32,000 nucleotides of DNA, from assembly GCF_000020025.1 (NCBI RefSeq), contig NC_010628.1:3300001-3332000 (forward strand), given 5' to 3'. Positions 6,149-31,544 of this stretch are shown one piece after another. Numbering within the stretch: position 1 is the stretch's first letter; each line of letters begins with the position of its first letter. Position numbers and translations under genes: made by a program. Under the pieces are notes generated by a model. The model ran no database searches. It was given only the letters and a program-made list of their open reading frames with translations, and had not been told where the DNA came from. The stretch is from Nostoc punctiforme PCC 73102. GTDB lineage: Bacteria; Cyanobacteriota; Cyanobacteriia; Cyanobacteriales; Nostocaceae.

Positions 6149-6421
6149 TTAAGCAACCTGCCATTAACGATTTTTCAAACATTTTTTTATAATAGTAGTT
6201 GTACAAAAATACACGCAGTAGACACAAAGCGCCTACTCTACAAGAATGCCAAAGGCGAACCCCCAGGGTATCGCCCTTAGATGAACAGTATTGAACTATA
6301 CCGGGTTAAGCTAAATCAACCGATTTTTTTGATTTTTTACCTTCAGAAAATTACATCATGAATTGTGATACTTCGAGTTAATTGGGGAAAACTGAACTCA
6401 GGTTATCCAGTCGCAAGCTTT

Positions 6422-9400
6422 ATGGTAGAAAATCGAGTTGATGTTCCCGGTTATGGGATTGGTGAAAGAATTTATACCAGCACTCGTACCCTGGTTTACC
6501 GAGGTTGGCGAGAAGCCGATCAAACCCCTGTTGTGATCAAACTTCTGAAAAATTCTTATCCCAGTGTGATTGAGTTGGCTCAATTCAGGAATCAGTACTC
6601 AATTACGAAAATCTTAAATGTTCCTGGGGTTGTTCGGATTTATAGTCTGGAAAATTGTCAAAATCGACCCGCCTTGATTTTAGAAGATTTTGGCGGAATT
6701 TCTTTGAAGGAGTACACTGCTTTTAGAAGGAAAGGACTCGGTGAGATTGGAAATCAGGAAAATTCTTCATCTCTGCATCCTGATTTTTTGACTGAGTTTT
6801 TACAGATTGCGATCGCACTTGCCGATATTCTGGCCGATCTCTACCATCACGAAATCATCCACAAGGATATTAAACCCGCCAATATCCTGATAAACCCTAC
6901 CACAAAGCAGGTCAAACTCATTGACTTTAGCATTGCTTCACTGCTACCAAGAGTTAACCAACTTTCAACCAGCCCGACTGTTTTAGAAGGAACTCTCGCC
7001 TATCTCTCTCCCGAACAAACCGGGCGAATGAATCGGGGGATTGATTATCGCACTGACTTCTATTCTCTCGGAGTCACTTTCTATGAACTCTTAACTGGGC
7101 AATTGCCATTTCAATCGGATGATTTGATGGAATTGGTGCATTGTCACATAGCAAAACAACCACCACTTTTAAATGATAGAGGAGAGATTCCCCAAATTCT
7201 CTGTGATATCGTCATGAAATTGATGGCGAAGAATGCTGAAGATCGCTATCAGAGTGCATTAGGACTAAAACACGATCTGCAAATTTGTTTGGATCAATTG
7301 CAGTCAAGTGGAAATATTACCCCATTTCGGCTAGGGCGCAGGGACGTTTGCGATCGCTTTGCGATTCCCGAAAAACTCTATGGACGGGAAACAGAAGTGG
7401 CCATGCTGCTAGCAACTTTTGAACGGTTGCGCCAGGGAACTTCTGAAATGATCCTGGTAGCAGGTTCCTCTGGTATTGGCAAAACTGCAATTGTCAACGA
7501 AGTTCACAAACCAATCACCCGTCAGCGTGGATACTTTATCAAGGGCAAATTCGATCAATTTAATCGGAATATTCCCTTTTTTGCTTTGGTGCAAGCGTTT
7601 CGAGACTTAATGGCACAACTGCTGACAGAGAGTGATGCTCAAATTGACCAGTGGAAGACTCAAATTTTATCTACCTTGGGTGAAAGTGGTCAAGTAATTA
7701 TTGAGGTGATTCCAGAACTCGAACGAATCATTGGGAAACAGCCCTCACTCCCGGAATTATCGGGTAGTGCTGTTCAAAGCCGCTTCAATTTGCTGTTTCA
7801 GAAATTCATTCAAGTATTTACAACCCAAGAGCATCCTCTAGTTATTTTCCTTGATGATTTACAGTGGGCAGACTCGGCTTCTTTAAAACTGATGCATCTG
7901 TTGATGAGTGAAGCCAGCAACTCTTATTTATTAGTCATTGGAGCTTATCGGGATAATGAGGTTTTCTCTGCACATCCCCTGATGTTGACCATTGAGGAAA
8001 TGCGTCAAGAGGCGATTACAGTTAGTAATATTCTTCTTTCTGCCCTTACCGAAACCGACCTAAATCAACTGATTGCAGATACCCTCAAATATTCAACAGA
8101 ACAAGCAACTGCGATCGCCAATCTGGTGTATCAAAGGACTAAAGGTAATCCATTTTTCACGAACCAGTTTCTTAAGTCGCTGCATGAAGATGGGCTAATC
8201 GCCTTTGCCAGCAGAACAGGAGATTGGCAGTGCAATCTGGTTAAAATCCGGGCGCTGTCTTTTACAGAAGATATTGTCGAGTTTGTGGCGCTGCAACTCC
8301 ACAAATTACCACCGCAGACTCAGGATGTTCTCAAATTGGCTGCTTGTATCGGCAATCAGTTTGATTTAGAAACTATATCAGTTGTCTATCAAAAATCTCC
8401 AGTCCAAACCGCAGCAGATTTGTGGCCAGCCCTCAAGGATGAATTGATCTTACCCAGTGGGGAAGGGTATACATTCTTTCAGGATGAGTCTGTTGTCATG
8501 GATGATTTGACAAATGACAACACACCAATAATTATTACCTACAAATTTTTCCACGATCGCATTCAACAAGCCGCTTATTCACTAATTCCGGACTATCAAA
8601 AACCAGCAACTCACCTAAAGATTGGTCAATTGCTGTTGAGCAATACCCCGGAAACTGAGCAAGAATTGCTGATTTTTGAAATTGTCAATCAATTGAATAT
8701 TGGCATAGAACTGATCGCATCTCAAACCGATCGCGAACGACTGGCACAACTCAACCTGCTGGCAGGAAAAAAAGCCAAATCTTCCACAGCTTACCAGGTA
8801 GCAATTGAGTATTTAACTACCGGGATTCGTTTATTGAGATCCGACTGTTGGCAAAGTCAATATGAATTAACTCTGGCATTGCACGAATCAGCCGCCGATG
8901 CTGCTTATCTTAGTGGCGCGTATGAACAGATGGAAAAATTGACTCAAACAGTCATCCAGCAAGCCAAAACTCCACTGGATCAAGTCGGCATTTACGAAAC
9001 CAAAATCCAGGCATATACAGCTAAAAATGATGTGCTGGGGGCGATCGCGATCGCGCGTCAGGGAATGAGTAAATTCGGCGTGGTTTTCCCAGAAACACCC
9101 ACCCCACAAGACATTCAGCAAGCCCTGCAAGAAACTGCTAATCTGATTAACGGTCGTGATATTGCAGAATTGGTTGACTTACCTGTGATGGTAGCCGCAG
9201 AGAAGCTAGCTGTCACCCGAATTGTGGCAAACGTTGCTCCAGCCGTTTACATTGCCGATCCTAATCTGTTTCCACTACTGGTTTTGTCTCAAGTCCAAGC
9301 ATCCATTGAGTATGGCAATGCTCCATTTTCTGCCTTTTGTTATGGCTGTTATGGCATTCTGTTGAGCGGAATTCTTCAGGATATTGAAACAGCCGATCGA

Positions 9401-12025
9401 GTTGGCAATCTTGCCTTGGCACTAACTGACAAATTTAATATTAGCGACATCAAACCCACAGTATTTTATGTCGTAGGTGCTTTCATCACCTATTTGAAGT
9501 CTCCACTGCAAAAATCTTTGCAGTTAATGCTGGATGGTTACAAAATTGCTCTAGAAACTGGAAATGTATACTACGTAGGTTTCAATACCAAAGATATCTG
9601 CCAATATTCCTATTTTCTAGGTCGAGAGTTGAACTCGTTAGAGGAAGACATCCAGGCTTACTGTCATGTTTTGGAAAATTTTAAGCAAGGTACGACTCTA
9701 AACTATTGCCGTATCTTTTGGCAAACAGTTTTGAATTTGCTTGGTAAAGCTGAGAATCCCTGTATTATCACAGGCGAGGCGCTCAACGAAGCCGAATTTG
9801 TGAATCAACTGGTTCAAGCCAATGAGTTGACAGGGCTTCACTATTTCTTTCTCCACAAATTGATTCTCTGTTATCTGTTTGAAAACCTTTCTCAAGCAGT
9901 GGAAACAGCCGCTCAAGCCAGAGAATATCTAGTTGCGGGAACGGGCTATGCCACTGTACCGATGTTTTATTTTTATGATTCTCTGACGGCTTTAGCAGAG
10001 TATCGCACAGCTACGGCCTATCGCCGAGAAACATTACTGGAACGGGTGACAGAAAACCAGGAAAAGATGCAGACATGGGCGTACCACGCACCCATGAATT
10101 ATTTGCACAAATTTGAACTAGTGAAAGCCGAAGAGTGCCGAGTGTTGGGACAGATGGCCCAGGCAGTGGATCATTACGATCGCGCGATCGCACAGGCAAA
10201 AGCCAATAAATATATTCAGGAAGAAGCCCTCGCCAATGAACTGGCTGCCCGATTTTATTTAGAATGGAACAAAGAAGCGATCGCGCAAATTTATCTCGAA
10301 AATGCCTATTACACTTACCTTAGCTGGGGAGCGATCGCTAAAGTTAACCAGTTGGAACGCCAATATTCTCAATTATTGCTTAAGGTGTTTCAGCAGGATG
10401 AAACTACTTCTTCAACCCTTACTACTACAATCGGATTCAACCAAAGTAGTTCCACTGGGACTGAAGCATTAGATTTAGCAACGGTGATGAAAGCCTCTCA
10501 TGCACTGGCTGGAGAAATTGAGTTAGAAAAGCTGTTGACAACCCTGATGCAGGTTGTAATCGAAAATGCCGGGGCTGATAAATCAGTCCTTCTGCTGCTT
10601 CAAGAGGATAATTGGGTTGTTGTGGCTCAAAAAACTAGCCAAGCGATCTTTGAAGAAGAGCAATTTCTGCCACACCCTACGCCTACCGATGAAAACTTGG
10701 GGATAATAAACCTGCACTCCCTTCCTCTTTCAGCCAGTCAGGATGTTCCCAAAGCGGTTGTGAATTATGTCTCGCGTACCACCGAAACCCTAGTGTTAGA
10801 TGATGCTCGCAAGGAAACTACCTTCGCCAACGATCCCTACATCATTCTATGGCAACCCAAAAGCTTGCTATGTACGCCTATTCACAATCGTGGCCAACTA
10901 ATTGGCATCCTATACCTAGAAAACAGTTTGACAACTGGAGCCTTTACCCAAAACCGTCTTGAGGTTTTGCGGTTGCTCACAGCACAAGCTGCCATCTCGC
11001 TGCAAAATGCCATGTTGTATAACAATCTAGCTGTAGCAAAAGCTCAATTAGAAGATTACAACCATACTTTAGAGCAAAAGGTGGAGCAGAGAACTCTGGA
11101 GTTGAATGATAAAAATCAGCATCTCTCGGAAACTTTAGAGGAACTGCAACACACTCAAAGCCAACTGATTCAAACTGAAAAAATGTCTTCATTGGGACAA
11201 ATGGTAGCAGGTGTTGCCCATGAAATTAACAACCCGATTAACTTTATCTATGGCAACCTTACTTATACCAATGAGTATTGTCAAGATTTGCTGCATCTGG
11301 TTGAGCGGTATCAGCACTACTATCCTCAACCGTTTGTTGAGATTCAAGAAGAACTAGAAGCAATAGATTTAAACTTCCTCAAATCAGACTTACAAAAATT
11401 GCTGCAATCAATGAAAGTGGGAGCAGATCGCATCCGTCAAATTGTCCTTTCTCTCCGCAATTTCTCGCGTTTAGATGAGGCTGAAATGAAAAGTGTCAAT
11501 CTTCATGAAGGCATTGACAGCACCCTGTTAATTTTACACCACCGTCTAGAAGAGAAAGCACACCGCCCCGGAATCGATGTGATTAAGGAATATGCACAGT
11601 TGCCAGAAGTTAGTTGCTACGCCAGTCAGATCAATCAAGTATTCATGAATATTCTGAACAATGCTATTGATGCCTTGGATTCATCATTCACAACTGAAGA
11701 AAGACAAACAAAAATTCCCACTATCCAAATTCGTACCAAAATGACTGATGCTGATACAGTAACTATTCAAATTGCAGATAATGGGCCTGGGATGTGTGAC
11801 GAGGTGAAACAGCGCCTATTTGACCCATTTTTCACAACAAAACCTATAGGCACAGGAACAGGTTTAGGATTATCAATTAGCCACTCGATTGTAGAAAAAC
11901 ATGGGGGAAGACTAAGTGTAATATCCGAATCGGGAAAAGGAGCGGAGTTTTCTCTTTCTATACCTTTACATAATACAGTAGAGCAGGGAGCAGGGGGCAA
12001 GGGGAATGGAAAAAGAGCCAATTAA
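6422..12025 (+). CDS. Multidomain sensor: Ser/Thr protein kinase + AAA(16)-type ATPase + helical/TPR-like region + GAF + histidine kinase (HisKA/HATPase_c)
   Basis: Kinase catalytic loop IIHKDIKPANILI and TLAYLSPEQ; P-loop VAGSSGIGKTAIV; H-box AGVAHEINNPINF; N-box NILNNAIDA; G1 DNGPGM; G2 GTGTGLGLS. The ORF track starts at GTG 6365, but ATG 6422 (MVENRVDVPGYGIGERIY) fits the usual N-terminus of this family better. Confidence 0.9.
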   Translation: MVENRVDVPGYGIGERIYTSTRTLVYRGWREADQTPVVIKLLKNSYPSVIELAQFRNQYSITKILNVPGVVRIYSLENCQNRPALILEDFGGISLKEYTAFRRKGLGEIGNQENSSSLHPDFLTEFLQIAIALADILADLYHHEIIHKDIKPANILINPTTKQVKLIDFSIASLLPRVNQLSTSPTVLEGTLAYLSPEQTGRMNRGIDYRTDFYSLGVTFYELLTGQLPFQSDDLMELVHCHIAKQPPLLNDRGEIPQILCDIVMKLMAKNAEDRYQSALGLKHDLQICLDQLQSSGNITPFRLGRRDVCDRFAIPEKLYGRETEVAMLLATFERLRQGTSEMILVAGSSGIGKTAIVNEVHKPITRQRGYFIKGKFDQFNRNIPFFALVQAFRDLMAQLLTESDAQIDQWKTQILSTLGESGQVIIEVIPELERIIGKQPSLPELSGSAVQSRFNLLFQKFIQVFTTQEHPLVIFLDDLQWADSASLKLMHLLMSEASNSYLLVIGAYRDNEVFSAHPLMLTIEEMRQEAITVSNILLSALTETDLNQLIADTLKYSTEQATAIANLVYQRTKGNPFFTNQFLKSLHEDGLIAFASRTGDWQCNLVKIRALSFTEDIVEFVALQLHKLPPQTQDVLKLAACIGNQFDLETISVVYQKSPVQTAADLWPALKDELILPSGEGYTFFQDESVVMDDLTNDNTPIIITYKFFHDRIQQAAYSLIPDYQKPATHLKIGQLLLSNTPETEQELLIFEIVNQLNIGIELIASQTDRERLAQLNLLAGKKAKSSTAYQVAIEYLTTGIRLLRSDCWQSQYELTLALHESAADAAYLSGAYEQMEKLTQTVIQQAKTPLDQVGIYETKIQAYTAKNDVLGAIAIARQGMSKFGVVFPETPTPQDIQQALQETANLINGRDIAELVDLPVMVAAEKLAVTRIVANVAPAVYIADPNLFPLLVLSQVQASIEYGNAPFSAFCYGCYGILLSGILQDIETADRVGNLALALTDKFNISDIKPTVFYVVGAFITYLKSPLQKSLQLMLDGYKIALETGNVYYVGFNTKDICQYSYFLGRELNSLEEDIQAYCHVLENFKQGTTLNYCRIFWQTVLNLLGKAENPCIITGEALNEAEFVNQLVQANELTGLHYFFLHKLILCYLFENLSQAVETAAQAREYLVAGTGYATVPMFYFYDSLTALAEYRTATAYRRETLLERVTENQEKMQTWAYHAPMNYLHKFELVKAEECRVLGQMAQAVDHYDRAIAQAKANKYIQEEALANELAARFYLEWNKEAIAQIYLENAYYTYLSWGAIAKVNQLERQYSQLLLKVFQQDETTSSTLTTTIGFNQSSSTGTEALDLATVMKASHALAGEIELEKLLTTLMQVVIENAGADKSVLLLLQEDNWVVVAQKTSQAIFEEEQFLPHPTPTDENLGIINLHSLPLSASQDVPKAVVNYVSRTTETLVLDDARKETTFANDPYIILWQPKSLLCTPIHNRGQLIGILYLENSLTTGAFTQNRLEVLRLLTAQAAISLQNAMLYNNLAVAKAQLEDYNHTLEQKVEQRTLELNDKNQHLSETLEELQHTQSQLIQTEKMSSLGQMVAGVAHEINNPINFIYGNLTYTNEYCQDLLHLVERYQHYYPQPFVEIQEELEAIDLNFLKSDLQKLLQSMKVGADRIRQIVLSLRNFSRLDEAEMKSVNLHEGIDSTLLILHHRLEEKAHRPGIDVIKEYAQLPEVSCYASQINQVFMNILNNAIDALDSSFTTEERQTKIPTIQIRTKMTDADTVTIQIADNGPGMCDEVKQRLFDPFFTTKPIGTGTGLGLSISHSIVEKHGGRLSVISESGKGAEFSLSIPLHNTVEQGAGGKGNGKRAN
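11981..12004. repeat. G-rich left arm of the inverted repeat bracketing the four-helix-bundle gene
   Basis: gagcagggagcagggggcaagggg pairs imperfectly with the reverse complement of 12442-12474 (gagcaggggagcagggggcaggggggcaagggg). Confidence 0.65.
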
Positions 12026-12354: not shown

Positions 12355-12441
12355 GTTCTGGGCATTATAGTAACCATAATCAAAAATCCATCCCCCTGGC
12401 TCATCAAACGCTAAATTATTAATCATCCCCCTGTCCCTCTG

Positions 12442-12474
12442 CCCCTTGCCCCCCTGCCCCCTGCTCCCCTGCTC
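12442..12474. repeat. C-rich right arm of the inverted repeat, part of the C-rich tract 12427-12486
   Basis: ccccttgcccccctgccccctgctcccctgctc is the reverse complement partner of 11981-12004. The tract consists of reiterated ccctgc(t/c)cc units. Confidence 0.65.
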
Positions 12475-12485
12475 CCCTGCCCCCT

Positions 12486-18357: not shown

Positions 18358-18388
18358 AAGTCAAAAGTCAAAAGTCAAAAGTCAAAAG
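18358..18388. repeat. Heptamer tandem repeat (AGTCAAA x4 plus a partial unit), STRR-like
   Basis: Direct reading: agtcaaa agtcaaa agtcaaa agtcaaa agt. Confidence 0.9.
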
Positions 18389-18846
18389 TATTATAAAATA
18401 AGCTCTTTAGGGATTTTAAATGGTTGCTCTATTTACGCCGTGGCGTACTAGTTAGATACCTAAATCTCTAAACCGACGCACCTCCTGATATGAACGTGGA
18501 CTTATAGAGTCGTAAACCATTTACAGACTCTACCCTTGGCTTGCTGTTAACCCTGAGCAGCTTAACACATAATACTTTACAGTATTAAAGAATACGTGAT
18601 ATTTTCTACACACCTGCGGGAGATTAGATATTATCGAGTTGCATACATTCACAAACCTGTCAGCACAAGAAACTCGTTCGCTGTGTAGAGGCAATACAGG
18701 AATCAAAATATCCCAAAGGCGTTGGTGATGGTGAAGTTCTAGCTACCTCAAGAAATTATTGACCGGAATCTGTGGGTAGATATATGACAATCAACCTGAA
18801 AGCACGTTTAAGATTTAAGTAAAGAAATATTTCGTAGCTTACAGGC

Positions 18847-22725: not shown

Positions 22726-22977
22726 CTTTGCAGCTAAGATTGCTTCATGTATAAGAAAAGCTTAAGTTTTTCTTGTAAATGTATAAGCCGTTGCTGCAAA
22801 TGCTTAATACTTTGCAACAAATGCTTCTCCATGTATAAGAAAGACTTAAGTTTTTCTTGCAAACATATAAGTCTCTGCTGCAATTGTTCAATGCTTTGCA
22901 GCTAAGATTAGTTCATGTATAAGAAAGGCTTAAATCATTGCAGCATTTGTTGTAACGAACTTATAAATCTATTTATT
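22726..22977. repeat. Three tandem copies of a diverged 84-bp unit (intergenic)
   Basis: Units start with ctttgca at 22726, 22810 and 22894, an exact 84-nt period. Each unit contains TTTGCAGC / GCTGCAA half-sites and (C)ATGTATAAG motifs. Unit 3 diverges after about 40 nt. Confidence 0.75.
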
Positions 22978-23013: not shown

Positions 23014-24751
23014 GGGCTTGCTGAAAAAAAAGAAAAGGTTGCAGTCTCTAGATTCTCAGACCAAAGAAGTATATTCAGGTGCAAGACAAGAAGGTAAAAT
23101 AGCCCAAAATCCTTGCATCACAGTGGTTCGTCGCAGCATAGTGTATCATTATTAACTATGTACTGAAAAGAAGAATCAACTCCAATTCCAGCAGAAAGTT
23201 TTGAGCTTCCATTTGAGGGAAAGTTATCATCAGATAATCGTTGGGTAATTATGGCCGATTTAATACCCTGGACAGAATTTGAGTCGGAATATTCTGCCGG
23301 ATTCTCCGCAGAGATAGGGGCACCAGCAAAGTCATTTCGGATGGCGTTAGGTGCATTAATAATTAAAGAGAAACTAAGTATAAGCGACAGGGAAACAGTA
23401 GAGCAAATCAAGGAGAATCCTTATTTACAGTACTTTATAGGGATGTCATCTTATAGTAACAAAACTCCATTTGACGCATCCATGTTAGTACATTTTCGAG
23501 AAAGAATCAGTGCAGAACTAGTCAATAATGTGAATCAAGAAATGGTTAAGAAGATGCTAGAGTTAGCATCTTCTATTGACACCGAAAAAAAACAGAAGAC
23601 GCTCGCGAACTCGCTAACGCTGCGCTATCGACAGAAAAAGCAGCAGAACAAGGTAATACGCTAAGAAATCGAGGGAAATTAATATTAGATGCGACTTGTG
23701 TGCCTAGTGATATCAGCTATCCAACAGATTTAAACCTATTAAATCAAGCGAGAAAACAGACAGAAAGAATAATTGACTTGCTTTATGAACAGATAAAGGG
23801 AATATTAGAGAAAAAACCAAGGACTTACCGAGAAATAGCTAGGAAAGACTACTTAGAAGTAGCTAAAAAACGTCGTGTATCTCAAAAAGAGAGGAGAAAA
23901 GCGATTAAAAAACAACTCCAATATATTAAAAGAAACTTATCCTATATTGACCAGCTAATTGTAGCAGGAGCATCTCTAAAAAGTTTAACTAATAGACAAT
24001 ATAAGATGTTGCTGGTAGTCGCAGAAGTATATCGTCAACAACTATGGCTGTATGAAAATAAAAAGCAGAGCATTGATGACCGTATTGTAAGTTTAAGCCA
24101 ACCACATATCCGTCCAATTGTCCGAGGAAAAGCGGGTAAAGCCGTGGAATTTGGCGCTAAACTATCTGCTAGTTACTTTGATGGATATGCATTTTTAGAC
24201 CATATTAGATGGGATAACTTTAATGAATCAGGAGACTTAAAAACACAAATAGAATCCTTTAAAAACTACACTGGATATTATCCAGAATCTGTTCATGTTG
24301 ATAAAATTTATCGCAAAGCGAGAAAACCGATCTTGGTGCAAAGAAAGAGGTATTAGAATCAGTGGAGTTCCTTTAGGAAGACCGCCAAAAAATGTGAGTA
24401 AAGAAAAAAAGAAGCAAGCTTTACAAGATGAGAGGATTCGTAATTGTATTGAAGGCAAATTTGGACAAGCTAAAAGAAGATTTAGCTTGAGTAGAGTAAT
24501 GGCGAAACTTCCTCATACAACTCTAACTGTGATTGCTATTACTTTTTTAGTCATGAATCTTTCTACTCACCTGTCACGGTTTTTTTGTGCCTTTTTATGT
24601 CTATTTTGGAAAAATAGACATTTTTTAGCGATTGACATAACCAAGCATTATGATTTTGCTAGCTATAGGCAACAAAAACTTATCTTTGACCTTGCTTAAA
24701 TAACTAGTCAACCCAAAAGAATTGCTTTTTTATGACTTTTTCAGCAAGCCC
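23014..24751 (+). mobile_element. IS5-like insertion sequence (1738 bp) with perfect 15-bp IRs and a 6-bp direct repeat
   Basis: IR gggcttgctgaaaaa (23014-23028) against tttttcagcaagccc (24737-24751). TAACTA sits immediately outside both ends (23008-23013 and 24752-24757), consistent with a target-site duplication. Confidence 0.8.
23251..24699 (+). pseudogene. IS5-family-type transposase (InsH/DUF772 N-terminal + DDE_Tnp_1-like), in three frames
   Basis: ORFs 23251-23664, 23700-24356 and 24295-24699. The second frame is actually open from 23580, so the first change is a -1 shift at the A8 run 23585-23592. The second is a +1 change near the A3 at 24315-24317 (…VHVDKIYR / KRENRSWCKERGIRISG…). 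Confidence 0.8.
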
Positions 24752-24861: not shown

Positions 24862-25308
24862 ATGGCACGTCGTAAAAGAAATTCCAGCGTTTTAGAACGA
24901 GCCGATCGCCGGATTGAAAGTTTGCAATCTATTAGTGTACAACTTGACTTTGGCCAAGGATTGACTATACAAGCTTACACCGTGACAATTAACGATCTCC
25001 GGTCTAAGCTTGCTGCTTACAACACTGCATTATCTACCATTGACAAACTTACAGATGACGTGAATAACGCAGAAAAGGCTGTAATAGCGATGTCAGAAAA
25101 AATGTTACTAGCAGTTGGCAGCCGTTACGGTAAAACCAGCCCAGAATACGAGATGGCGGGTGGTGCTAGACGAGGTACTACTAAGAAGAAGCAAAGCGTA
25201 CTAGGCAATTCCAAACCTAGCAATTCTTTAGCAGCTGATTCTGTGAAAGTTTCTTCTGCAAATGGATTTATGAATGGGGTATCGGGTGCGGGTGCGATCG
25301 GGAGTTAA
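24862..25308 (+). CDS. Hypothetical protein (148 aa): basic N-terminus, helical core, Gly/Ser/Asn-rich C-terminal tail
   Basis: ATG-initiated ORF with no competing ORF. I recognise no family motif. Confidence 0.55.
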   Translation: MARRKRNSSVLERADRRIESLQSISVQLDFGQGLTIQAYTVTINDLRSKLAAYNTALSTIDKLTDDVNNAEKAVIAMSEKMLLAVGSRYGKTSPEYEMAGGARRGTTKKKQSVLGNSKPSNSLAADSVKVSSANGFMNGVSGAGAIGS

Positions 25309-25450: not shown

Positions 25451-25640
25451 CAATACGGTTTGGTTAACGTGTTTATTCCTCGAAGATCCCCCCAACCCCC
25501 CTTAAAAAGGGGGGCTTAAAACCCTCTTTATACCCCGAAGATGCCCCCAACCCCCCTTAAAAAGGGGGCTTAAAACCCTCTTTATACCCCCTTTTTAAGG
25601 GGGTCGCCGTAGGCGGGGGGATCTTAACCGAACCCTATTG
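25451..25640. repeat. MITE-like composite repeat (about 190 bp) with terminal inverted repeats and an internal tandem duplication
   Basis: caatacggtttggttaa (25451-25467) against the reverse complement of ttaaccgaaccctattg (25624-25640), 15/17 matched. Inside are two roughly 54-nt tandem copies of c(c/t)cgaagat(c/g)cccccaaccccccttaaaaagggg(g)gcttaaaaccctctttata, plus the hairpin ccccctttttaaggggg. Confidence 0.6.
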
Positions 25641-25734
25641 GCCCGCCTACTTCGTTTGTAAGACAGACAACATAGAAAGAATTGAGCGTTTTATGGTGTA
25701 GTATATAAAACAGCGCTTAAAAGTCCTCGGTCAA

Positions 25735-26205
25735 TTGAATACTATGGTTGCAGACCCCAGCATAGATTTTCATAGGTATCTAGAATCTGTGAGCGAGGAT
25801 GAGACATATAGATATTGGCAAGATTTATACACGCCAACTAATGCCCTAGACCGTCAAAGACTTGAACCAAAAAACTCGCGCAGACGCTTAGATTTGAGTT
25901 TGATGGTGCAAACAGTACCACAGCAACGAAAAGGTGAAGCACCAGACAGAGAAAAAATTGAACGGTTGAATATCCTCGAAGGGTTACGGAAGTATGCGCC
26001 CGACCATGTATTGCTAGTAGGAAAACCGGGTTCAGGGAAATCTACAGCTTTAGAACGTTTGTTGTGGGAAGAAGCCGAAAAGCGCAGGGGAGCATGGGAG
26101 CAGAGGAGAAGCGGAAAAGCTGACAAGGATTCCCGTGCTAGTAGAGTTAAGGCGCTACAAAACTTCGGTGCTAGATTTAATTCGAGACTTTTTGACTCGC
26201 CATAA
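25735..26205 (+). CDS. NACHT NTPase fragment 1 (N-terminal region + Walker A)
   Basis: P-loop LLVGKPGSGKSTALERLL. The out-of-frame tail begins after EEAEK. The start is TTG 25735 or ATG 25744. Confidence 0.7.
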   Translation: MNTMVADPSIDFHRYLESVSEDETYRYWQDLYTPTNALDRQRLEPKNSRRRLDLSLMVQTVPQQRKGEAPDREKIERLNILEGLRKYAPDHVLLVGKPGSGKSTALERLLWEEAEKRRGAWEQRRSGKADKDSRASRVKALQNFGARFNSRLFDSP

Positions 26206-27322
26206 TTTAAACCTCAGCACGGAAGAGATTGAAAATCTACTGTTTAAAGAACGATTTTTGTTACTTGTAGACGGTTTGAATGAGTTACCCAACGATGAAG
26301 CTAGACGAGATTTAGACGGATTTCGGCACAAATACCACCGAATCACGCCGATGATTTTTACTACGCGGTATTTGAGGGTGGGGGGTGATTTAGGTATTGA
26401 AAAAAAGCTGGAAATGCAACCACTCACAGAAGCGCAGATGCAGCATTTTGTCCGCGCTTATTCGCCAGAGGTGGGTGATAAAATGCTGCGACAGTTGGCT
26501 GGACGCTTGCGAGAATTGGCGGAAACGCCGTTGTTATTGTCGATGCTGTGTCAAGTATTCAATTATGCTAAACAAATTCCTACTAGTTTAGGTGAGTTGT
26601 TTCGTTGGTTCTCTGGAGAGTATCACAAACTCAAGGAAAATGTACCAATTGCTGAAGAGTTACCTAACTGGCAGGCTGATTTATTGCAGCATCTCGCATT
26701 TGTAATGATGCAAGGCGACAATTTGACTGAGTTGCGATTAACTATTTCTAAACTGCAAGCTAGGAATGTTTTAGCGAAATTTTTACGAAATGAAGAAGTA
26801 CCTTCTGCTAATGATCGTGCTAGACGCTGGCTAGATGATTTGCTCAAATATCACTTGATTCAATTGAGAACAGATAACGAAATTGAATTCCGCCACCAGC
26901 TGATTCAGGAATACTACGCCGCAGAATCTATACTCCTACAGCTTGACAATATTAGTGATGAGAAGCTGAAACGAGATTATCTAAATTGCTTGAAGTGGAC
27001 AGAACCTGTGGCGTTGATGTTAGGGTTGGTGAATGATGAAGGGCAGGCTTTACGAGTGGTGAAGTTAGCCTTAGATGTAGATTTGAAGTTAGGGGCAAGG
27101 TTGGCAGGAGAGGTAAAGCAAGAGTATCAGAAAAAAACAGTAAATTTAATTTTAGAGTTAGACATTCATAAATTACTTCAAGTTGAGTTTTTAGGTATCA
27201 CTCACTCTGAGGATGCCGTTAGTTTTTTAAATAATTCATTACAGCATGAATATTCTGATGTTCGTAAGAGAGCCGCAGATGCGTTAGGAAAATCGGCAAT
27301 GAAGCGGCGGTATCTGCCTTAA
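26135..27322 (+). CDS. NACHT NTPase fragment 2 (Walker B, NACHT helical/WH region, first HEAT unit)
   Basis: This frame is open from 26054 (…[19 protein letters not shown]…). It carries the Walker B motif [25 protein letters not shown], and ends in [18 protein letters not shown] followed by an out-of-frame tail. Confidence 0.8.
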
Positions 27323-29520
27323 TTGGCGCTTTGCAGCATGAATATTCTGATGTTCGTAGGAGAGCCGTATATGCGTTAGGAGAAATCGGCAATGAAGCGG
27401 CGGTATCTGCCTTAATTGGCGCTTTGCAGCATGAATATTCTGATGTTCGTTGTAGTGCCGCAGATGCGTTAGGAAAAATCGGCAATGAAGCGGCGGTATC
27501 TGCCTTAATTGGCGCTTTGCAGGATGAAGATTTTGATGTTCGTAGGAGAGCCGCAGATGCGTTAGGAAAAATCGGCAATGAAGCGGCGGTATCTGCCTTA
27601 ATTGGCGCTTTGCAGCATGAATATTCTGATGTTCGTAGGAGAGCCGTATATGCGTTAGGAGAAATCGGCAATGAAGCGGCGGTATCTGCCTTAATTGGCG
27701 CTTTGCAGCATGAATATTCTGATGTTCGTAGGAGAGCCGTATATGCGTTAGGAGAAATCGGCAATGAAGCGGCGGTATCTGCCTTAATTGGCGCTTTGCA
27801 GCATGAATATTCTGATGTTCGTTGTAGTGCCGCAGATGCGTTAGGAAAAATCGGCAATGAAGCGGCGGTATCTGCCTTAATTGGCGCTTTGCAGGATGAA
27901 GATTTTGATGTTCGTGGGAGAGCCGCAGATGCGTTAGGAAAAATCGGCAATGAAGCGGCGGTATCTGCCTTAATTGACGCTTTGCAGGATGAAGATTTTG
28001 ATGTTCGTGGGAGAGCCGCAGATGCGTTAGGAAAAATCGGCAATGAAGCGGCGGTATCTGCCTTAATTGGCGCTTTGCAGCATGAATATTCTGATGTTCG
28101 TTGTAGTGCCGCAGATGCGTTAGGAGAAATCGGCAATGAAGCGGCGGTATCTGCCTTAATTGGCGCTTTGCAGCATGAATATTCTGATGTTCGTAGGAGA
28201 GCCGTATATGCGTTAGGAGAAATCGGCAATGAAGCGGCGGTATCTGCCTTAATTGGCGCTTTGCAGCATGAATATTCTGATGTTCGTAGGAGAGCCGTAT
28301 ATGCGTTAGGAGAAATCGGCAATGAAGCGGCGGTATCTGCCTTAATTGGCGCTTTGCAGCATGAATATTCTGATGTTCGTTGTAGTGCCGCAGATGCGTT
28401 AGGAAAAATCGGCAATGAAGCGGCGGTATCTGCCTTAATTGGCGCTTTGCAGGATGAAGATTTTGATGTTCGTGGGAGAGCCGCAGATGCGTTAGGAAAA
28501 ATCGGCAATGAAGCGGCGGTATCTGCCTTAATTGACGCTTTGCAGGATGAAGATTTTGATGTTCGTGGGAGAGCCGCAGATGCGTTAGGAAAAATCGGCA
28601 ATGAAGCGGCGGTATCTGCCTTAATTGGCGCTTTGCAGCATGAATATTCTGATGTGCGTTGTAGTGCCGCAGATGCGTTAGGAGAAATCGGCAATGAAGC
28701 GGCGGTATCTGCCTTAATTGGCGCTTTGCAGCATGAATATTCTGATGTTCGTAGGAGAGCCGTATATGCGTTAGGAGAAATCGGCAATGAAGCGGCGGTA
28801 TCTGCCTTAATTGGCGCTTTGCAGCATGAATATTCTGATGTTCGTAGGAGAGCCGTATATGCGTTAGGAGAAATCGGCAATGAAGCGGCGGTATCTGCCT
28901 TAATTGACGCTTTGCAGGATGAAGATTCTGATGTTCGTTGTAGTGCCGCAGATGCGTTAGGAAAAATCGGCAATGAAGCGGCGGTATCTGCCTTAATTGA
29001 CGCTTTGCAGGATGAAGATTTTGATGTTCGTGGGAGAGCCGCAGATGCGTTAGGAAAAATCGGCAATGAAGCGGCGGTATCTGCCTTAATTGACGCTTTG
29101 CAGGATGAAGATTTTGATGTTCGTGGGAGAGCCGCAGATGCGTTAGGAAAAATCGGCAATGAAGCGGCGGTATCTGCCTTAATTGGCGCTTTGCAGGATG
29201 AAGATTTTGATGTTCGTAGGAGAGCCGTATATGCGTTAGGAGAAATCGGCAATGAAGCGGCGGTATCTGCCTTAATTGGCGCTTTGCAGCATGAATATTC
29301 TGATGTTCGTTGTAGTGCCGCAGATGCGTTAGGAAAAATCGGCAATGAAGCGGCGGTATCTGCCTTAATTGGCGCTTTGCAGGATGAAGATTTTGATGTT
29401 CGTGGGAGAGCCGCAGATGCGTTAGGAAAAATCGGCAATGAAGCGGCGGTATCTGCCTTAATTTACGCTTTGCAGGATGAAGATTCTGATGTTCGTTGTA
29501 GTGCTGCAGATGCGTTAGTA
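27242..29520 (+). repeat. Tandem array of about 25 near-identical 93-bp coding repeats, with a 558-bp higher-order repeat
   Basis: The unit-initial CAG codon sits at 27242, then at 27334 + 93k for k = 0..23. Units 4-9 (27613-28170) and 10-15 (28171-28728) encode identical protein, and the only nucleotide difference I found is gtt/gtg at 28656. Confidence 0.95.
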
Positions 29521-30129
29521 AAAATTGCTGACTCTGAAGTTTTGTGTCAGATATGGGAATTACAATTAAAAACACCATCACAAGATAAAAGCGATGCAAT
29601 TTCTAAAATTCAAGAGCGGTGCAAATTTTATAACCATGAAATTTTTTATTCTGTCTTGAATGAGGAAACAAATAACGCCGATCCTTTAACTAGTGTTCTA
29701 AGCAAACTTGATAAAACACTGATAACTATGTCAGAAACTCCTAAAAATGATTTCACAGGTGCTACCTTTGGCCCCATTACAGGCAGTGTTACAGGAAATA
29801 TCCAAGGTGATAATATTGGCACTCAAAACAATTACGCGTCTACAGAAGATATTGCTAAATTAGAAACTGTGCTTGAGCAGTTACTTGAGAAAATGGAGCA
29901 GGATAAACCGACTGTAATCGATGCTCAACCGATTGTTGCTCAAGCTGTTGAGAGTCATCCAGTACTTAAAAATAGGCAAGCAATTGAGCAAGTTATCAAA
30001 AATAATCCAATGCTCAAAGTACGTTTGCAAAGAGCAGTGACAGCAGCAGGTATTGAGACTGTAAAGATTTTATTTGCTCCTGCTGGTATTGCGATTGAAG
30101 CAATTAGGGCTTGGAATGAACCTAGCTAG
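27331..30129 (+). CDS. HEAT repeat (PBS-lyase HEAT-like) domain protein fragment: 24 repeat units plus a 200-aa unique tail
   Basis: 31-aa units of the form [31 protein letters not shown] repeat with an exact 93-nt period from 27334. Confidence 0.85.
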
Positions 30130-30202: not shown

Positions 30203-30372
30203 AGATCCCCCTAAATCCCCCGATAAATTGGGGGACTTTGATTCCGGTTCCCCCCTTTTTAAGGCTACAGTATACACACAAGTCAAATTACCCCCCTTAA
30301 TCTCCCCTTGGAAAGGGGGGAAACAGGAAATCTAGTTCCCTCCCCTTTCCAAGGGGAGGGTTAGGGTGGGGT
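30203..30372. repeat. Cluster of short G/C-run hairpin repeats between convergent genes
   Basis: Examples are gatccccctaaatcccccgataaattggggg, ccccttggaaagggg, and the perfect 10-bp stem ccctcccctt-tcc-aaggggaggg (30338-30360). Related motifs occur at 16865-16882 and 25478-25620. Confidence 0.6.
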
Positions 30373-30401: not shown

Positions 30402-31121
30402 CTATTTCAGACTTGTGTATTTCTTCAATTGCTGCACAAACGCATCATATTCCGGTGACTTCAACCCCAATTGCACTACCTCCAACACTCGCACCATCTG
30501 ATTGTTTAACAACGCTTCCACTGCTAACCACAAACCCGGAAACACCTGAGAGCGAATAATTTCATCTGCACTGGGAGATAGCGATCGATAATCGCCATCA
30601 ATTAGGCAAAACCATTCAATTTGATTCTCGTAAGATTGCCAGATTACGTATTCCAACACCCCATTACGGCGATAAACCTGCTTTTTGCTCCCTGTATCGA
30701 TCGCAACGCTACTTGCTGCAATTTCAACAATCAATTCGGGAGATCCTTCAATGTAACCGTCGCTGCTCAAACGGGTTTGTCCGCCTGCGTTTGGTTTAAT
30801 AAACAGCACTACATCTGGCTGGGGTTCATTGTCTAAATCTAGTCTGACGGTTGGGGCATCACTCAAATCAACGCCAGGAGTCAATGATTAGTAGACTCCT
30901 AACCAAGTTATGGCCCGACTGTGGGGTTTGCCATGCTGCTCATGTCTTACAGGAGATGCTACGTAAACGATTCCTTCAATCAGTTCTGCTTTCTTGATAT
31001 GGGGTGCAGCCGCATAACGCCGTTCAAATTCAGGGCGAGTTAGGCGATGTCTACGACGGGCTACGCCTACGCCACTTTCAAGCGGAGGCAGATGTCTCTG
31101 GGGTGAGTACTCTCTAACCAT
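30402..31121 (-). pseudogene. Uma2 family (DUF820, PD-(D/E)XK-like) endonuclease with an in-frame TAA stop
   Basis: ORFs 30888-31163 and 30402-30884 are in the same frame: …ITWLGVY-TAA-S-L-TPGVDLSDAPTVRLD… The likely start is ATG 31119-31121 ([10 protein letters not shown]). The downstream part has the typical Uma2 motif PELIVEIAASS. Confidence 0.8.
31045..31072. repeat. 28-nt dispersed repeat, copy 2 (in-frame inside the Uma2 gene)
   Basis: Identical to 22668-22695. On the minus strand it encodes GVGVARRRH within [19 protein letters not shown]. Confidence 0.9.
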
Positions 31122-31544
31122 TTGCCCATCCTTGGAGTTGCCGGATACTTCTGACTTTAGCAAACCTCAGTTATCAGTTAGAATTTATTGATTTGCTGCT
31201 TTCCTCAAATTCCAAAAATTATAAAATGTAATGTTAATTGTGATCGTGTGTTCTACTGTGCGATCGCTTACTCGCCCAACTTAGGCATCGCCGACAATTG
31301 ATGCTGCATAACAGAGGCCAACTAGCTATCATTAGCTAAGTGGTATGCCAGATAAATTGACGGCAATACCGTTTAGTTAGCAGTCTTTATCAACTGCTTA
31401 CACTCGCACCCATAAAAATTAGTTTGATCCACCTTCTATTCCCTGCTTTTTATTGTGATACGCATTGGCTCAAAGTACTCTAAATAAGTACGGGGTGCAA
31501 AAAATACAAAAATTTCTTCAAGGATTAAGATTAAGGATACGGCT

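Follow-up and report, generated by a model that had tools for sequence, protein, structure and literature searches.

An array of near-identical HEAT repeats under concerted evolution, probably the sensor arm of an NLR-like STAND NTPase, in Nostoc punctiforme

The window, a stretch of 32,000 nucleotides of the Nostoc punctiforme PCC 73102 genome (contig NC_010628.1, positions 3,300,001 to 3,332,000, forward strand; all positions below are window positions), contains an array of 93-bp units directly downstream of a NACHT-type NTPase module. The array is under concerted evolution with unit shuffling. We consider it probable that the array serves an NLR-like STAND NTPase as its sensor arm, with a presumed role in recognition, and that its pattern of variation records selection that acted before the gene was inactivated in this strain.

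A NACHT-HEAT gene split by two frameshifts

All parts of the locus lie on the plus strand. The N-terminal region and the first part of the NTPase module (25735..26133) are read in frame 1, within an ORF at 25735..26205. This part carries a Walker A motif, GKPGSGKST (26020-26046), has matches to AAA_16/nSTAND-type P-loop families in Pfam and is 87% identical to the N-terminus of L002, an intact syntenic ortholog from another Nostoc that is encoded by a single ORF of 1240 aa. The remainder of the NACHT module, together with a helical spacer that extends up to the array, is read in frame 2 (26135..27241) and includes a Walker B-like sequence of the hhhhD type, LLLVDGLNE (26258-26284); 466 homologs of this part were found, nearly all of them cyanobacterial. 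With the NACHT profile of Pfam (cut-off 26.7 bits), the split fragments of the window score 20.8 bits and the intact ortholog 41.4 bits. The presence of a NACHT-type module immediately upstream of the array supports the analogy with fungal NLRs that was drawn in the original prediction.

The array begins with HEAT unit 1 (27242..27333), an R9K variant, and continues with units 2-24, which are 23 in-frame 93-bp units (27334..29472; unit k starts at 27334 + 93 × (k − 2)). A degenerate last unit, unit 25, of which about 47 nt are repeat-like and only helix A is present, is followed by capping helices (together 29473..29604), by a C-cap motif, IQERCKFYN (29605..29634), that is kept after the arrays across the family, and by a C-terminal tail of approximately 200 residues that extends to the stop codon (29635..30129). 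In the structural model, the tail consists of a low-confidence linker and a confident helical bundle (29842-30126; pLDDT 85-90, residues 106-200). No Pfam, NCBIfam or PDB-fold match was obtained for it, and its homologs number only 12, all from Nostoc or Desmonostoc. In other members of the family, the tail position is occupied by Peptidase_C14 (caspase), Metallophos, TIR_2, DUF4062, PNP_UDP_1 or EAD1+CHAT output domains. A scan for promoters and terminators around the gene gave nothing above the shuffled expectation, and an exact look-up of the 932-aa ORF product retrieved no record.

Two frameshifts, neither of which was noticed in the original prediction, split the gene into three ORFs (25735..26205, 26135..27322 and 27331..30129). 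The first lies in a linker (26083..26130) that was analyzed by three-frame translation and by DNA alignment with the orthologs L002 and L001. Compared to both, the linker has a net gain of 19 nt (13 + 6), and the reading frame therefore moves from 1 to 2; a homopolymer slip is ruled out at this site by the size of the difference. The second is a 1-bp deletion in HEAT unit 1, where a run of four A's replaces a run of five (27289-27292); L083-L086 share this run of four A's. Sequencing error is ruled out for both lesions, since four independent Logan assemblies reproduce the sequence between 25590 and 27319 with 99.9-100% identity, both lesions included, and the region of frameshift 1 with 100% identity. 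The NTPase, the repeat sensor and the output domain are a single protein in L002 but not in PCC 73102, which most probably carries an allele that was inactivated recently. Since the gene is broken in this strain, we make no claim about its current function; the copy is valuable as a clear example rather than as a working gene.

Unit variation, concerted evolution and unit shuffling

Tandem Repeats Finder reports the array at 27242-29525 with a period of 93, 24.6 copies, 94% matches, 0% indels and a score of 3868. Among the 23 full units, 12 nucleotide sites are variable, 11 of them non-synonymous and one synonymous. With Q taken as codon 1, the variable codons are 2 (H/D), 4 (Y/D), 5 (S/F), 9 (R/C/G), 10 (R/S), 12 (V/A), 13 (Y/D), 17 (E/K) and 29 (G/D/Y). 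Near-identical units with precisely these nine variable codons had been described in the original prediction, with K as a further variant at codon 9 that proved to be confined to unit 1. A single synonymous difference, GTT/GTG at 28656, had also been reported; this is correct for the 23 full units, but the degenerate last unit adds two more (GCC>GCT and ATC>ATT). Eleven distinct unit types can be distinguished by nucleotide sequence and ten by protein sequence. The mean pairwise identity of the units is 94.5% at the nucleotide level and 85.3% at the amino acid level over 713 residues, which narrowly exceeds the identity of >85% over at least 100 residues that defines repeats of high internal conservation (HIC; PMC4986451).

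The units fall into three main haplotypes and their recombinants, and the number of independent mutational events is accordingly small, because unit types are few. The mosaic combination of variants that had been predicted is borne out by the four-gamete test, which 23 of the 36 pairs of non-singleton biallelic sites fail. Inter-unit recombination is further evident from a higher-order repeat of 558 bp (six units; 27569..28906, about 2.4 copies) that was delineated by lag-558 comparison. Lag-558 identity spans positions 27569 to 28348, the core copies (27613-28170 and 28171-28728) differ by one mismatch (T at 28098, G at 28656), and autocorrelation peaks at a lag of six units with 96.9% identity. 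The 558-bp duplication had thus been recognized correctly, but not the unit numbers: counted from 27242, units 5-10 are repeated as units 11-16, rather than 4-9 as 10-15.

Synonymous diversity, pS, is 0.008 within the array as compared to 0.19 in the flanking NACHT region (this genome versus L002). The closest relative of each unit always comes from its own array (23 of 23 units of the window and 17 of 17 units of L002), and the two arrays are separated by four fixed differences, including a synonymous one (GCG/GCA) at codon 22. The low pS and the grouping of units by genome support the very recent expansion by unequal recombination or gene conversion that was originally proposed. By unequal crossing-over or gene conversion between 93-bp units, blocks are duplicated, unit types reshuffled and neutral differences erased; near-identity of DNA within a genome, together with divergence between genomes, arises because inter-unit exchange removes such differences.

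Targeted mutagenesis, for example by a diversity-generating retroelement (DGR), might instead write the variable codons. In multicellular bacteria, DGRs do act on the sensor domains of NACHT/STAND proteins and diversify them (PMC10907252), and the array would serve the same presumed purpose of sensor diversification in a STAND conflict protein, again in a multicellular bacterium. However, in DGR-diversified sensors a reverse transcriptase drives the mutagenesis of adenines in a C-type lectin fold. The variable domain here is not of the C-type lectin/FGE fold but a HEAT solenoid, and it varies through recombination among tandem units that carry the variation in common as recombining haplotypes. 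No reverse transcriptase is present among the ORFs of the window, and the substitutions are of mixed kinds (C/G, T/G, C/T, A/T and G/A) rather than adenine-specific; on these grounds we regard a DGR as extremely improbable and reject it along with other templated mutagenesis.

As was anticipated in the original prediction, the array is an assembly hotspot: four independent short-read assemblies all stop at position 27319, inside unit 1, and 44 of the 73 HEAT-bearing homologous proteins checked end inside their array. Since most family entries are truncated in this way, short-read genomes are an unreliable source of domain architectures and copy numbers. The possibility that the assembler itself created or collapsed the number of units, their order or the 558-bp duplication, which would make the fine pattern unreliable, draws on the difficulty of assembling near-identical 93-bp units, on N-gaps or contig ends inside the arrays of relatives and on the mis-assembly of fungal HIC arrays from Illumina data (PMC12222747), as well as on the four interrupted assemblies. 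We nevertheless consider such an artefact very unlikely. Unit types, variable positions and codon pattern would be the same whatever the order of the units, the window matches a contig of finished size (8.23 Mb), and comparable arrays are found on chromosome-scale records, namely in L005 (18.7 copies, 97%), in L039 (a complete genome; 14.4 copies, 95%) and in L081 (an 8.86-Mb contig).

The orthologous arrays of different species vary in copy number (24.6 here, 17.6 in L002). The arrays of two Desmonostoc muscorum strains differ as well, with an N-gap inside the array in one of the two assemblies. Within N. punctiforme, a single assembly extends across the array. Two metagenome scans, one with a 44-mer from the tail and one with a 42-mer from the unit, returned no matches. 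A speculative and rather improbable extension of concerted evolution is that in filamentous polyploid cyanobacteria recombination among near-identical HEAT units acts as a standing generator of receptor diversity, so that a single clone would be heterogeneous in the order and number of units, whether between its chromosome copies, its cells or its filaments. If this were true, the repertoire of NLR-like sensors would change on ecological time scales, providing a recombination-based prokaryotic counterpart to HNWD reshuffling in fungi and a functional parallel to DGR hypermutation, and frequent stops and frameshifts would be its cost, or an off-switch.

Fold of the array and probable selection at predicted contact positions

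Six units searched against Pfam matched HEAT_2 (PF13646) with 175.9 bits (cut-off 27.7) and HEAT_PBS (PF03130) with 136.8 bits (cut-off 20.9). An AlphaFold2 model of ten units is an alpha-solenoid (pLDDT 92.6) with two helices per 31 residues, helix A comprising unit residues 5-18 and helix B residues 21-31. In the PDB, alphaRep proteins are the best matches in both sequence and fold (51-54% identity; target-normalised TM-score of 0.70-0.80 with Foldseek). The array units are thus HEAT repeats of the PBS-lyase/alphaRep type that form a regular alpha-solenoid.

In alphaRep proteins, the randomised positions 18, 19, 22, 23, 26 and 30 form the concave binding face in co-crystal structures (PMC3754942). 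They correspond to unit positions 5, 6, 9, 10, 13 and 17, five of which (5, 9, 10, 13 and 17) are variable in the window, in addition to positions 2, 4, 12 and 29. At the equivalent of position 12 (A/V), alphaRep has a conserved alanine, and position 29 is on helix B, off the helix A stripe. Amino acid differences persist almost only on the predicted exposed stripe of helix A and the loop that precedes it, the solvent exposure of the variable residues being deduced from homology to alphaRep and from helix periodicity. The idea that the variable residues contact a ligand, presumed in the original prediction, is supported by this homology.

A different role for the array, as a structural scaffold or a phycobiliprotein-lyase-like module without recognition, whose uniformity reflects selection for a regular rod, is suggested by the naming of HEAT_PBS repeats after phycobilisome lyases and by a match to a phycocyanobilin lyase subunit in the PDB search (E = 2e-16). 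We find this role highly improbable: the array is not invariant, its variation being concentrated along a single stripe that is predicted to be exposed, and it is joined to a NACHT NTPase and, in relatives, also to caspase, TIR, metallophosphatase and PNP_UDP domains.

A 93-bp array directly follows the NACHT module in more than 40 of 80 related loci. In 14 other arrays, entropy is highest at positions 2, 4, 5, 6, 9, 10, 13 and 17, and the entropy pattern correlates with that of the window (Spearman 0.62, p = 2e-4). At the six alphaRep positions, which were chosen a priori, pN exceeded pS in 15 of 15 independent cyanobacterial arrays (Wilcoxon p = 3e-5), with ratios from 1.2 to 27 that differ from a standard omega because they were obtained within arrays subject to gene conversion; the excess was 16-fold in the window and 27-fold in L039. 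At the remaining 25 codons of the 15 arrays, pN/pS was about 1. The pS values within arrays of relatives extend from 0.007 to 0.23, i.e., from very low to ordinary synonymous divergence.

The window array considered alone contains 13 non-synonymous events and one synonymous event, which does not differ significantly from neutral proportions (P = 0.11). Its non-synonymous events are clustered, however, both in codons that are hypervariable in other arrays (P = 0.0013) and in codons of the alphaRep library (P = 0.006). One could argue from the former proportion that there was no positive selection, that the variable codons belong to an unconstrained HEAT surface and that gene conversion and chance explain the few synonymous differences. 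The variable positions are indeed positions of low conservation in this repeat family generally, on whose natural variability the alphaRep design drew, and pN/pS within the arrays of some relatives is below 1 (0.70 in L004 and 0.82 in L080). Yet neutral surface codons should have a pN close to pS, because gene conversion makes no distinction between synonymous and neutral non-synonymous variants when it erases them, and this is at odds both with the excess of pN in every one of the 15 arrays and with the three main unit types of the window, which differ at 5-9 non-synonymous and no synonymous sites. Neutrality is therefore unlikely in our estimation, and the comparison of arrays supports positive selection at putative contact positions at the level of the family, though not from the window array by itself. 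An excess of non-synonymous over synonymous diversity, as is seen at the family level, is what selection for new binding specificities would be expected to leave behind, an interpretation that goes beyond the counts as such.

For the preferred reading, a recognition arm under selection, homology to fungal NLRs and to Avs/bNACHT proteins suggests a possible mode of action. The groove of the solenoid would bind a ligand, which may be a protein from a phage or another non-self source; this binding would release NACHT oligomerisation and activate the C-terminal output module.

Relation to known repeat-bearing receptors

The HIC regime is known for fungal NLRs and has already been noted for bacterial WD/TPR NLRs. 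Fungal NLRs with HIC repeats (WD40 in HET-E/HET-D/HNWD; ANK, TPR and HEAT in Podospora; Dyrka et al. 2014, PMC4986451; PMC12222747) share with the Nostoc locus a STAND NTPase followed by near-identical tandem repeats, concerted evolution with repeat shuffling, variation limited to a few positions of each repeat on the interaction surface (assigned here by homology), mis-assembly of arrays from short reads and natural alleles with stops or frameshifts. The Nostoc protein differs in its prokaryotic host, in its 31-residue PBS-type HEAT repeat and in the placement of its domains, the NTPase being preceded by a short N-terminal region only and the variable output domains being C-terminal to the array. 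The role in allorecognition belongs to the fungal receptors, whereas the Nostoc protein is known here from its sequence.

For bacterial NLR-like proteins of filamentous cyanobacteria and actinobacteria, Dyrka et al. 2020 (bioRxiv 10.1101/2020.01.06.895854, with reference to Marold 2015 and Hu 2017) suggested that WD and TPR repeats of 80-90% identity might diversify as they do in fungi. In naming repeats, their text is confined to WD and TPR and never uses the word HEAT, and it contains no test of hypervariable positions or concerted evolution, both of which were measured here for the HEAT type. We found no published description of the HIC regime in cyanobacterial NACHT-HEAT proteins, and near-identical repeats with variable positions were not found in the text of Kaur et al. 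2020 (PMC7159879).

Antiphage bNACHT/Avs STAND proteins (Kibby et al., bioRxiv 10.1101/2022.07.19.500537; PMC13581612) likewise have a sensor of the repeat type attached to a NACHT/STAND core. Their antigen-receptor-type sensor repeats include HEAT, and the proteins are enriched and highly paralogous in cyanobacteria (same sources). The position of the effector is inverted in the Nostoc protein, and near-identical repeats are not reported for the bNACHT/Avs proteins tested. PADLOC returned no match to a NACHT model but only HEAT-based matches, and the score with the NCBIfam EruA model was 18.3 bits, far below the cut-off of 1000.

If the reading of the array as a selected sensor arm is true, a regime of fungal immune and allorecognition receptors, in which near-identical repeats, shuffling and hypervariable contact residues come together, also acts on a large and poorly studied family of cyanobacterial NACHT-HEAT proteins with caspase, TIR, phosphoesterase and phosphorylase outputs.

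The coincidence of the naturally hypervariable positions with those of the alphaRep library provides a testable map of the presumed ligand-binding surface. alphaRep binders (Urvoas 2010; Guellouz 2013, PMC3754942) share with the array a 31-residue HEAT-like unit with a constant framework, variable positions on the concave surface and assembly from shuffled near-identical modules. They are man-made libraries selected by phage display, whereas the diversity in Nostoc is natural and the array is fused to an NTPase. In addition, loop positions 2 and 4 vary in the Nostoc array but are constant in alphaRep.

Array structure and concerted evolution

Tandem Repeats Finder reports the region 27242-29525 as a single array with a period of 93, 24.6 copies, 94% matches and no indels. 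When cut in codon register, with Q as codon 1, the array consists of unit 1 (27242-27333), 23 complete in-frame units (units 2-24, 27334-29472) and a last unit after 29472 that is repeat-like over only ~47 nt, all on the plus strand. Units 2-24 (2.1 kb) contain neither a stop codon nor an indel, and pairwise identity between units averages 94.5% at the nucleotide level and 85.3% at the protein level. The 23 complete units vary at 12 nucleotide sites, 11 of them amino-acid-changing. The affected codons, 2 (H/D), 4 (Y/D), 5 (S/F), 9 (R/C/G), 10 (R/S), 12 (V/A), 13 (Y/D), 17 (E/K) and 29 (G/D/Y), match those of the original prediction, with K at codon 9 confined to unit 1. The one synonymous difference noted there, GTT/GTG at 28656, is a singleton and the sole such variant in the complete units. 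Minus-strand ORFs of 739 and 771 codons also cross the array (27219-29599); they exist only because the unit is stop-free in those frames, and were rejected as genes.

Variants had been described as combining mosaically. Three main unit types (QHEYS..RRAVY..E, QHEYS..CSAAD..K/E and QDEDF..GRAAD..K) occur together with recombinants between them, and 23 of 36 site pairs fail the four-gamete test. The proposed 558-bp higher-order repeat is real, since 27613-28170 and 28171-28728 differ by one base and identity at a lag of 558 stretches from 27569 to 28348, but its units had been numbered off by one.

The window was compared with L002, an intact syntenic ortholog from a metagenome-assembled Nostoc genome. 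Synonymous and non-synonymous diversity (pS and pN) between the two are 0.19 and 0.07 in the unique NACHT region, compared to 0.008 and 0.070 between units inside the window array. The nearest unit belonged to the same array for 23 of 23 window units and 17 of 17 L002 units, and four sites, including a synonymous GCG/GCA at codon 22, are fixed differences between the arrays. Units group by their own array, fixed differences are present and within-array pS is low, a pattern characteristic of concerted evolution. Considered with the block duplication and mosaic haplotypes, it implicates unequal recombination or gene conversion among the units, which would homogenise the array, in agreement with the recent expansion proposed earlier. 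The last round of homogenisation is very recent compared with the split of the two Nostoc lineages. Synonymous divergence in relatives' arrays, suggested as a check, is very low in some (0.007 in L039, 0.013-0.018 in L005) and reaches 0.22-0.23 in others (L004 and L080). Because relatives cover this whole range, high internal conservation is a dynamic state, not a fixed property.

Fold and variable positions of the repeat unit

Six units matched Pfam families HEAT_2 (175.9 bits) and HEAT_PBS (136.8 bits), and a single-sequence AlphaFold2 model of ten units is a regular alpha-solenoid (mean pLDDT 92.6), in which each unit comprises helix A (residues 5-18) and helix B (residues 21-31) separated by a four-residue loop. 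The nearest solved structures by sequence and fold are artificial HEAT-like binders, the alphaRep proteins (51-54% identity, target-normalised TM-score 0.70-0.80). In alphaRep libraries, module positions 18, 19, 22, 23, 26 and 30 are randomised, and in co-crystals the binder contacts its target via the concave face bearing the randomised residues (PMC3754942). In an alignment with KDEDxxVRxxAAxALGxIG, they correspond to unit positions 5, 6, 9, 10, 13 and 17, five of which vary in the window array. Loop positions 2 and 4 vary as well, as do position 12, with a conservative A/V change in complete linkage with position 13, and the helix B position 29. The invariant residues of helix A (V7, A11, A14, L15 and I18) are those of the usual buried stripe; from the sequence itself, the variable helix A residues are predicted to lie on the opposite face.

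The alphaRep positions provide a test set defined independently of the arrays. In the window array alone, 13 non-synonymous events and 1 synonymous event were counted, which is not a significant departure from neutral site proportions (P = 0.11). The non-synonymous events cluster both in the six alphaRep codons (P = 0.006) and in the eight codons identified as hypervariable from other arrays (P = 0.0013). Entropy in 14 other arrays is highest at positions 2, 4, 5, 6, 9, 10, 13 and 17, and window variability correlates with it (Spearman 0.62, p = 2e-4). In 15 of 15 arrays, pN at the six alphaRep codons exceeded pS of all codons (ratios 1.2 to 27; Wilcoxon p = 3e-5) and pN/pS at the other 25 codons was about 1; such values have a non-standard meaning among paralogous units and come from few independent events per array. 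Because gene conversion strips neutral synonymous and non-synonymous variants equally, relaxed constraint by itself does not easily account for the pN excess. The selection signal thus appears stronger across the family and is not conclusive for the window array, and it is at the family level that the suggested diversification of contact residues finds support.

The NACHT-HEAT family and probable inactivation of the window copy

A Walker A motif (26020-26046) and a Walker B-like motif (26258-26284) precede the array. The NACHT-type module upstream of the array scores below the Pfam cut-off in the split window fragments and 41.4 bits in the intact ortholog, versus a cut-off of 26.7 bits. Its 466 homologs are nearly all cyanobacterial, and in more than 40 of 80 related genomic loci the module is directly followed by a 93-bp array (internal identity about 70% to 97%). 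The cap motif IQERCKFYN (29605-29634 in the window) is conserved after arrays, and the domains behind it in relatives include Peptidase_C14 (caspase), Metallophos (calcineurin-like phosphoesterase), TIR_2, DUF4062, PNP_UDP_1 and EAD1+CHAT (loci L004, L008, L011, L012, L014, L016, L026, L029, L030, L039, L046 and L048). Because a conserved cap is followed by very different C-terminal domains, the family appears to follow an NLR-like logic with a swappable output domain C-terminal to the sensor; PNP_UDP is also a typical effector domain of fungal NLRs. The mechanism by which the family would sense and respond is inferred.

Sequence-family and PDB fold searches gave no match for the window tail (29635-30126). 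Only its last 95 residues (29842-30126) are modelled confidently (pLDDT 85-90); they form a compact bundle of some six helices behind a disordered linker with NDFTGATFG...GTQNNYA. The tail has a dozen homologs, confined to Nostoc and Desmonostoc proteins, and tails of similar layout are found in loci L032, L047, L055, L067, L077 and L080. The bundle may be an adaptor domain.

Two frameshifts overlooked in the original prediction, whose observation is confirmed and whose interpretation is otherwise supported, split the locus into three ORFs (25735..26205, 26135..27322 and 27331..30129). One is in unit 1, where a run of four A (27289-27292) stands in place of five; the other lies in the NTPase linker (26083-26130), with a net 19 nt difference from two orthologs. 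L002 encodes the whole protein in one 1240-aa ORF and shares its N-terminus, C-terminal tail and neighbours with the window. The product of the middle ORF is a 384-aa NCBI protein (100% identity). Both lesions recur in four independent Logan short-read assemblies (SRR16479521, 25, 26 and 27) covering window 25590-27319 at 99.9-100% identity; they are therefore a property of the strain, and reference errors are ruled out. The window copy is probably a recently inactivated gene, a dead allele. In the Desmonostoc muscorum orthologs L081 (7560-9720) and L082 (7830-9780), interruptions fall within the array itself. In L081, on an 8.86-Mb contig, an in-frame stop coincides exactly with hypervariable position 5 (LQDED*FVR), and two of the units carry an 8-residue duplication (LIQEAVSALI); L082 has an N-run with a frame change plus a stop at GKIRNQ*AV. 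Only L002 is intact among the four orthologs of this small clade.

Several genes around the locus seem to be decaying, because the downstream Uma2-family gene (30402-31163, minus strand) is also disrupted, forming two ORFs (30888..31163 and 30402..30884) with a stop between them. An in-frame difference of 7 residues also lies close to its N-terminus. The gene is uninterrupted in relatives (a 241-aa ORF in L002; a 227-aa gene in L081 and L082).

Assembly behaviour, known systems and genomic neighbourhood

The array had been expected to be an assembly hotspot, and all four short-read contigs stop at 27319, 78 nt into unit 1. Among the 120 NACHT homologs listed, 73 carry at least one HEAT unit, 44 of these 73 end at most 35 residues from the last unit, and four of the 120 reach the cap motif. 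The contig ends at most 2.5 kb past the NACHT module in 16 of 80 genomic loci, and N-runs are found there in four more. The same assembly problems are documented for fungal NLRs of high internal conservation (PMC12222747).

Earlier work described high internal conservation in the WD, ANK and TPR repeats of fungal NLRs, along with concerted evolution and positive selection at residues of the interaction surface, and its Podospora genes included HEAT arrays (PMC4986451). A 2020 preprint notes 80-90% internal identity for the WD and TPR repeats of bacterial NLRs, which might diversify likewise; it makes no mention of HEAT repeats and leaves diversification as a suggestion (10.1101/2020.01.06.895854). 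Lists of antiphage NLR-related proteins contain bacterial NACHT proteins whose sensors are of HEAT type, and paralogs are abundant in cyanobacteria (10.1101/2022.07.19.500537; PMC13581612). STAND sensors of other multicellular bacteria are diversified by diversity-generating retroelements (PMC10907252), a mechanism rejected for the window array, with no reverse transcriptase in the window and no adenine bias. In the literature searched, no account of cyanobacterial NACHT proteins with near-identical HEAT arrays was found. The regime is already known; added here are a new host group and repeat type, an architecture that is inverted, and the correspondence with alphaRep design positions. The window array is not a new kind of system; it is a clear instance of a phenomenon worth studying systematically with long reads.

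In both the window and L002, the NACHT gene is preceded by a small conserved ORF (24862..25308 in the window). Upstream of it lies an insertion-sequence transposase (23251-24699, plus strand) with a DUF772 N-terminal part and a DDE_Tnp_1_2 C-terminal part, in overlapping or adjacent ORFs (23251..23664, 23700..24356 and 24295..24699) that reflect either a frameshift or programmed frameshifting. A 55-bp tandem repeat just upstream of the NACHT-HEAT gene (25472-25590; 2.2 copies, 93%) is rich in C/G-run palindromes (CCCCCCTTAAAAAGGGGGG), and a similar GGGGGA...TCCCCC hairpin lies just downstream (30216-30253); both resemble the small MITE-like repeats that are frequent in Nostoc. A Logan contig begins exactly at 25590. 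Elsewhere in the window are two more genes of signalling or conflict type, one for a TPR+CHAT protein (6-1619), whose ORF runs from the window start and may be truncated there, and one for a 1886-aa protein with Ser/Thr kinase, AAA_16, GAF and histidine-kinase domains (6365-12025). Three more short tandem repeats lie at 12427-12485 (CCCCCTGC, 7.5 copies), 18358-18389 (heptamer AAGTCAA, 4.6 copies, 100%) and 22726-22933 (84 bp, 2.5 copies, 79%). Two genes downstream of the NACHT-HEAT gene, orthologous loci encode a 2123-aa multi-HAMP protein (L002 13079-16016; L081 11551-14187; L082 11845-14520); the window ends before this gene. Inside that gene is a 276-bp tandem array of about 10 copies with 78-81% identity, a second and more diverged coding repeat array in this neighbourhood.
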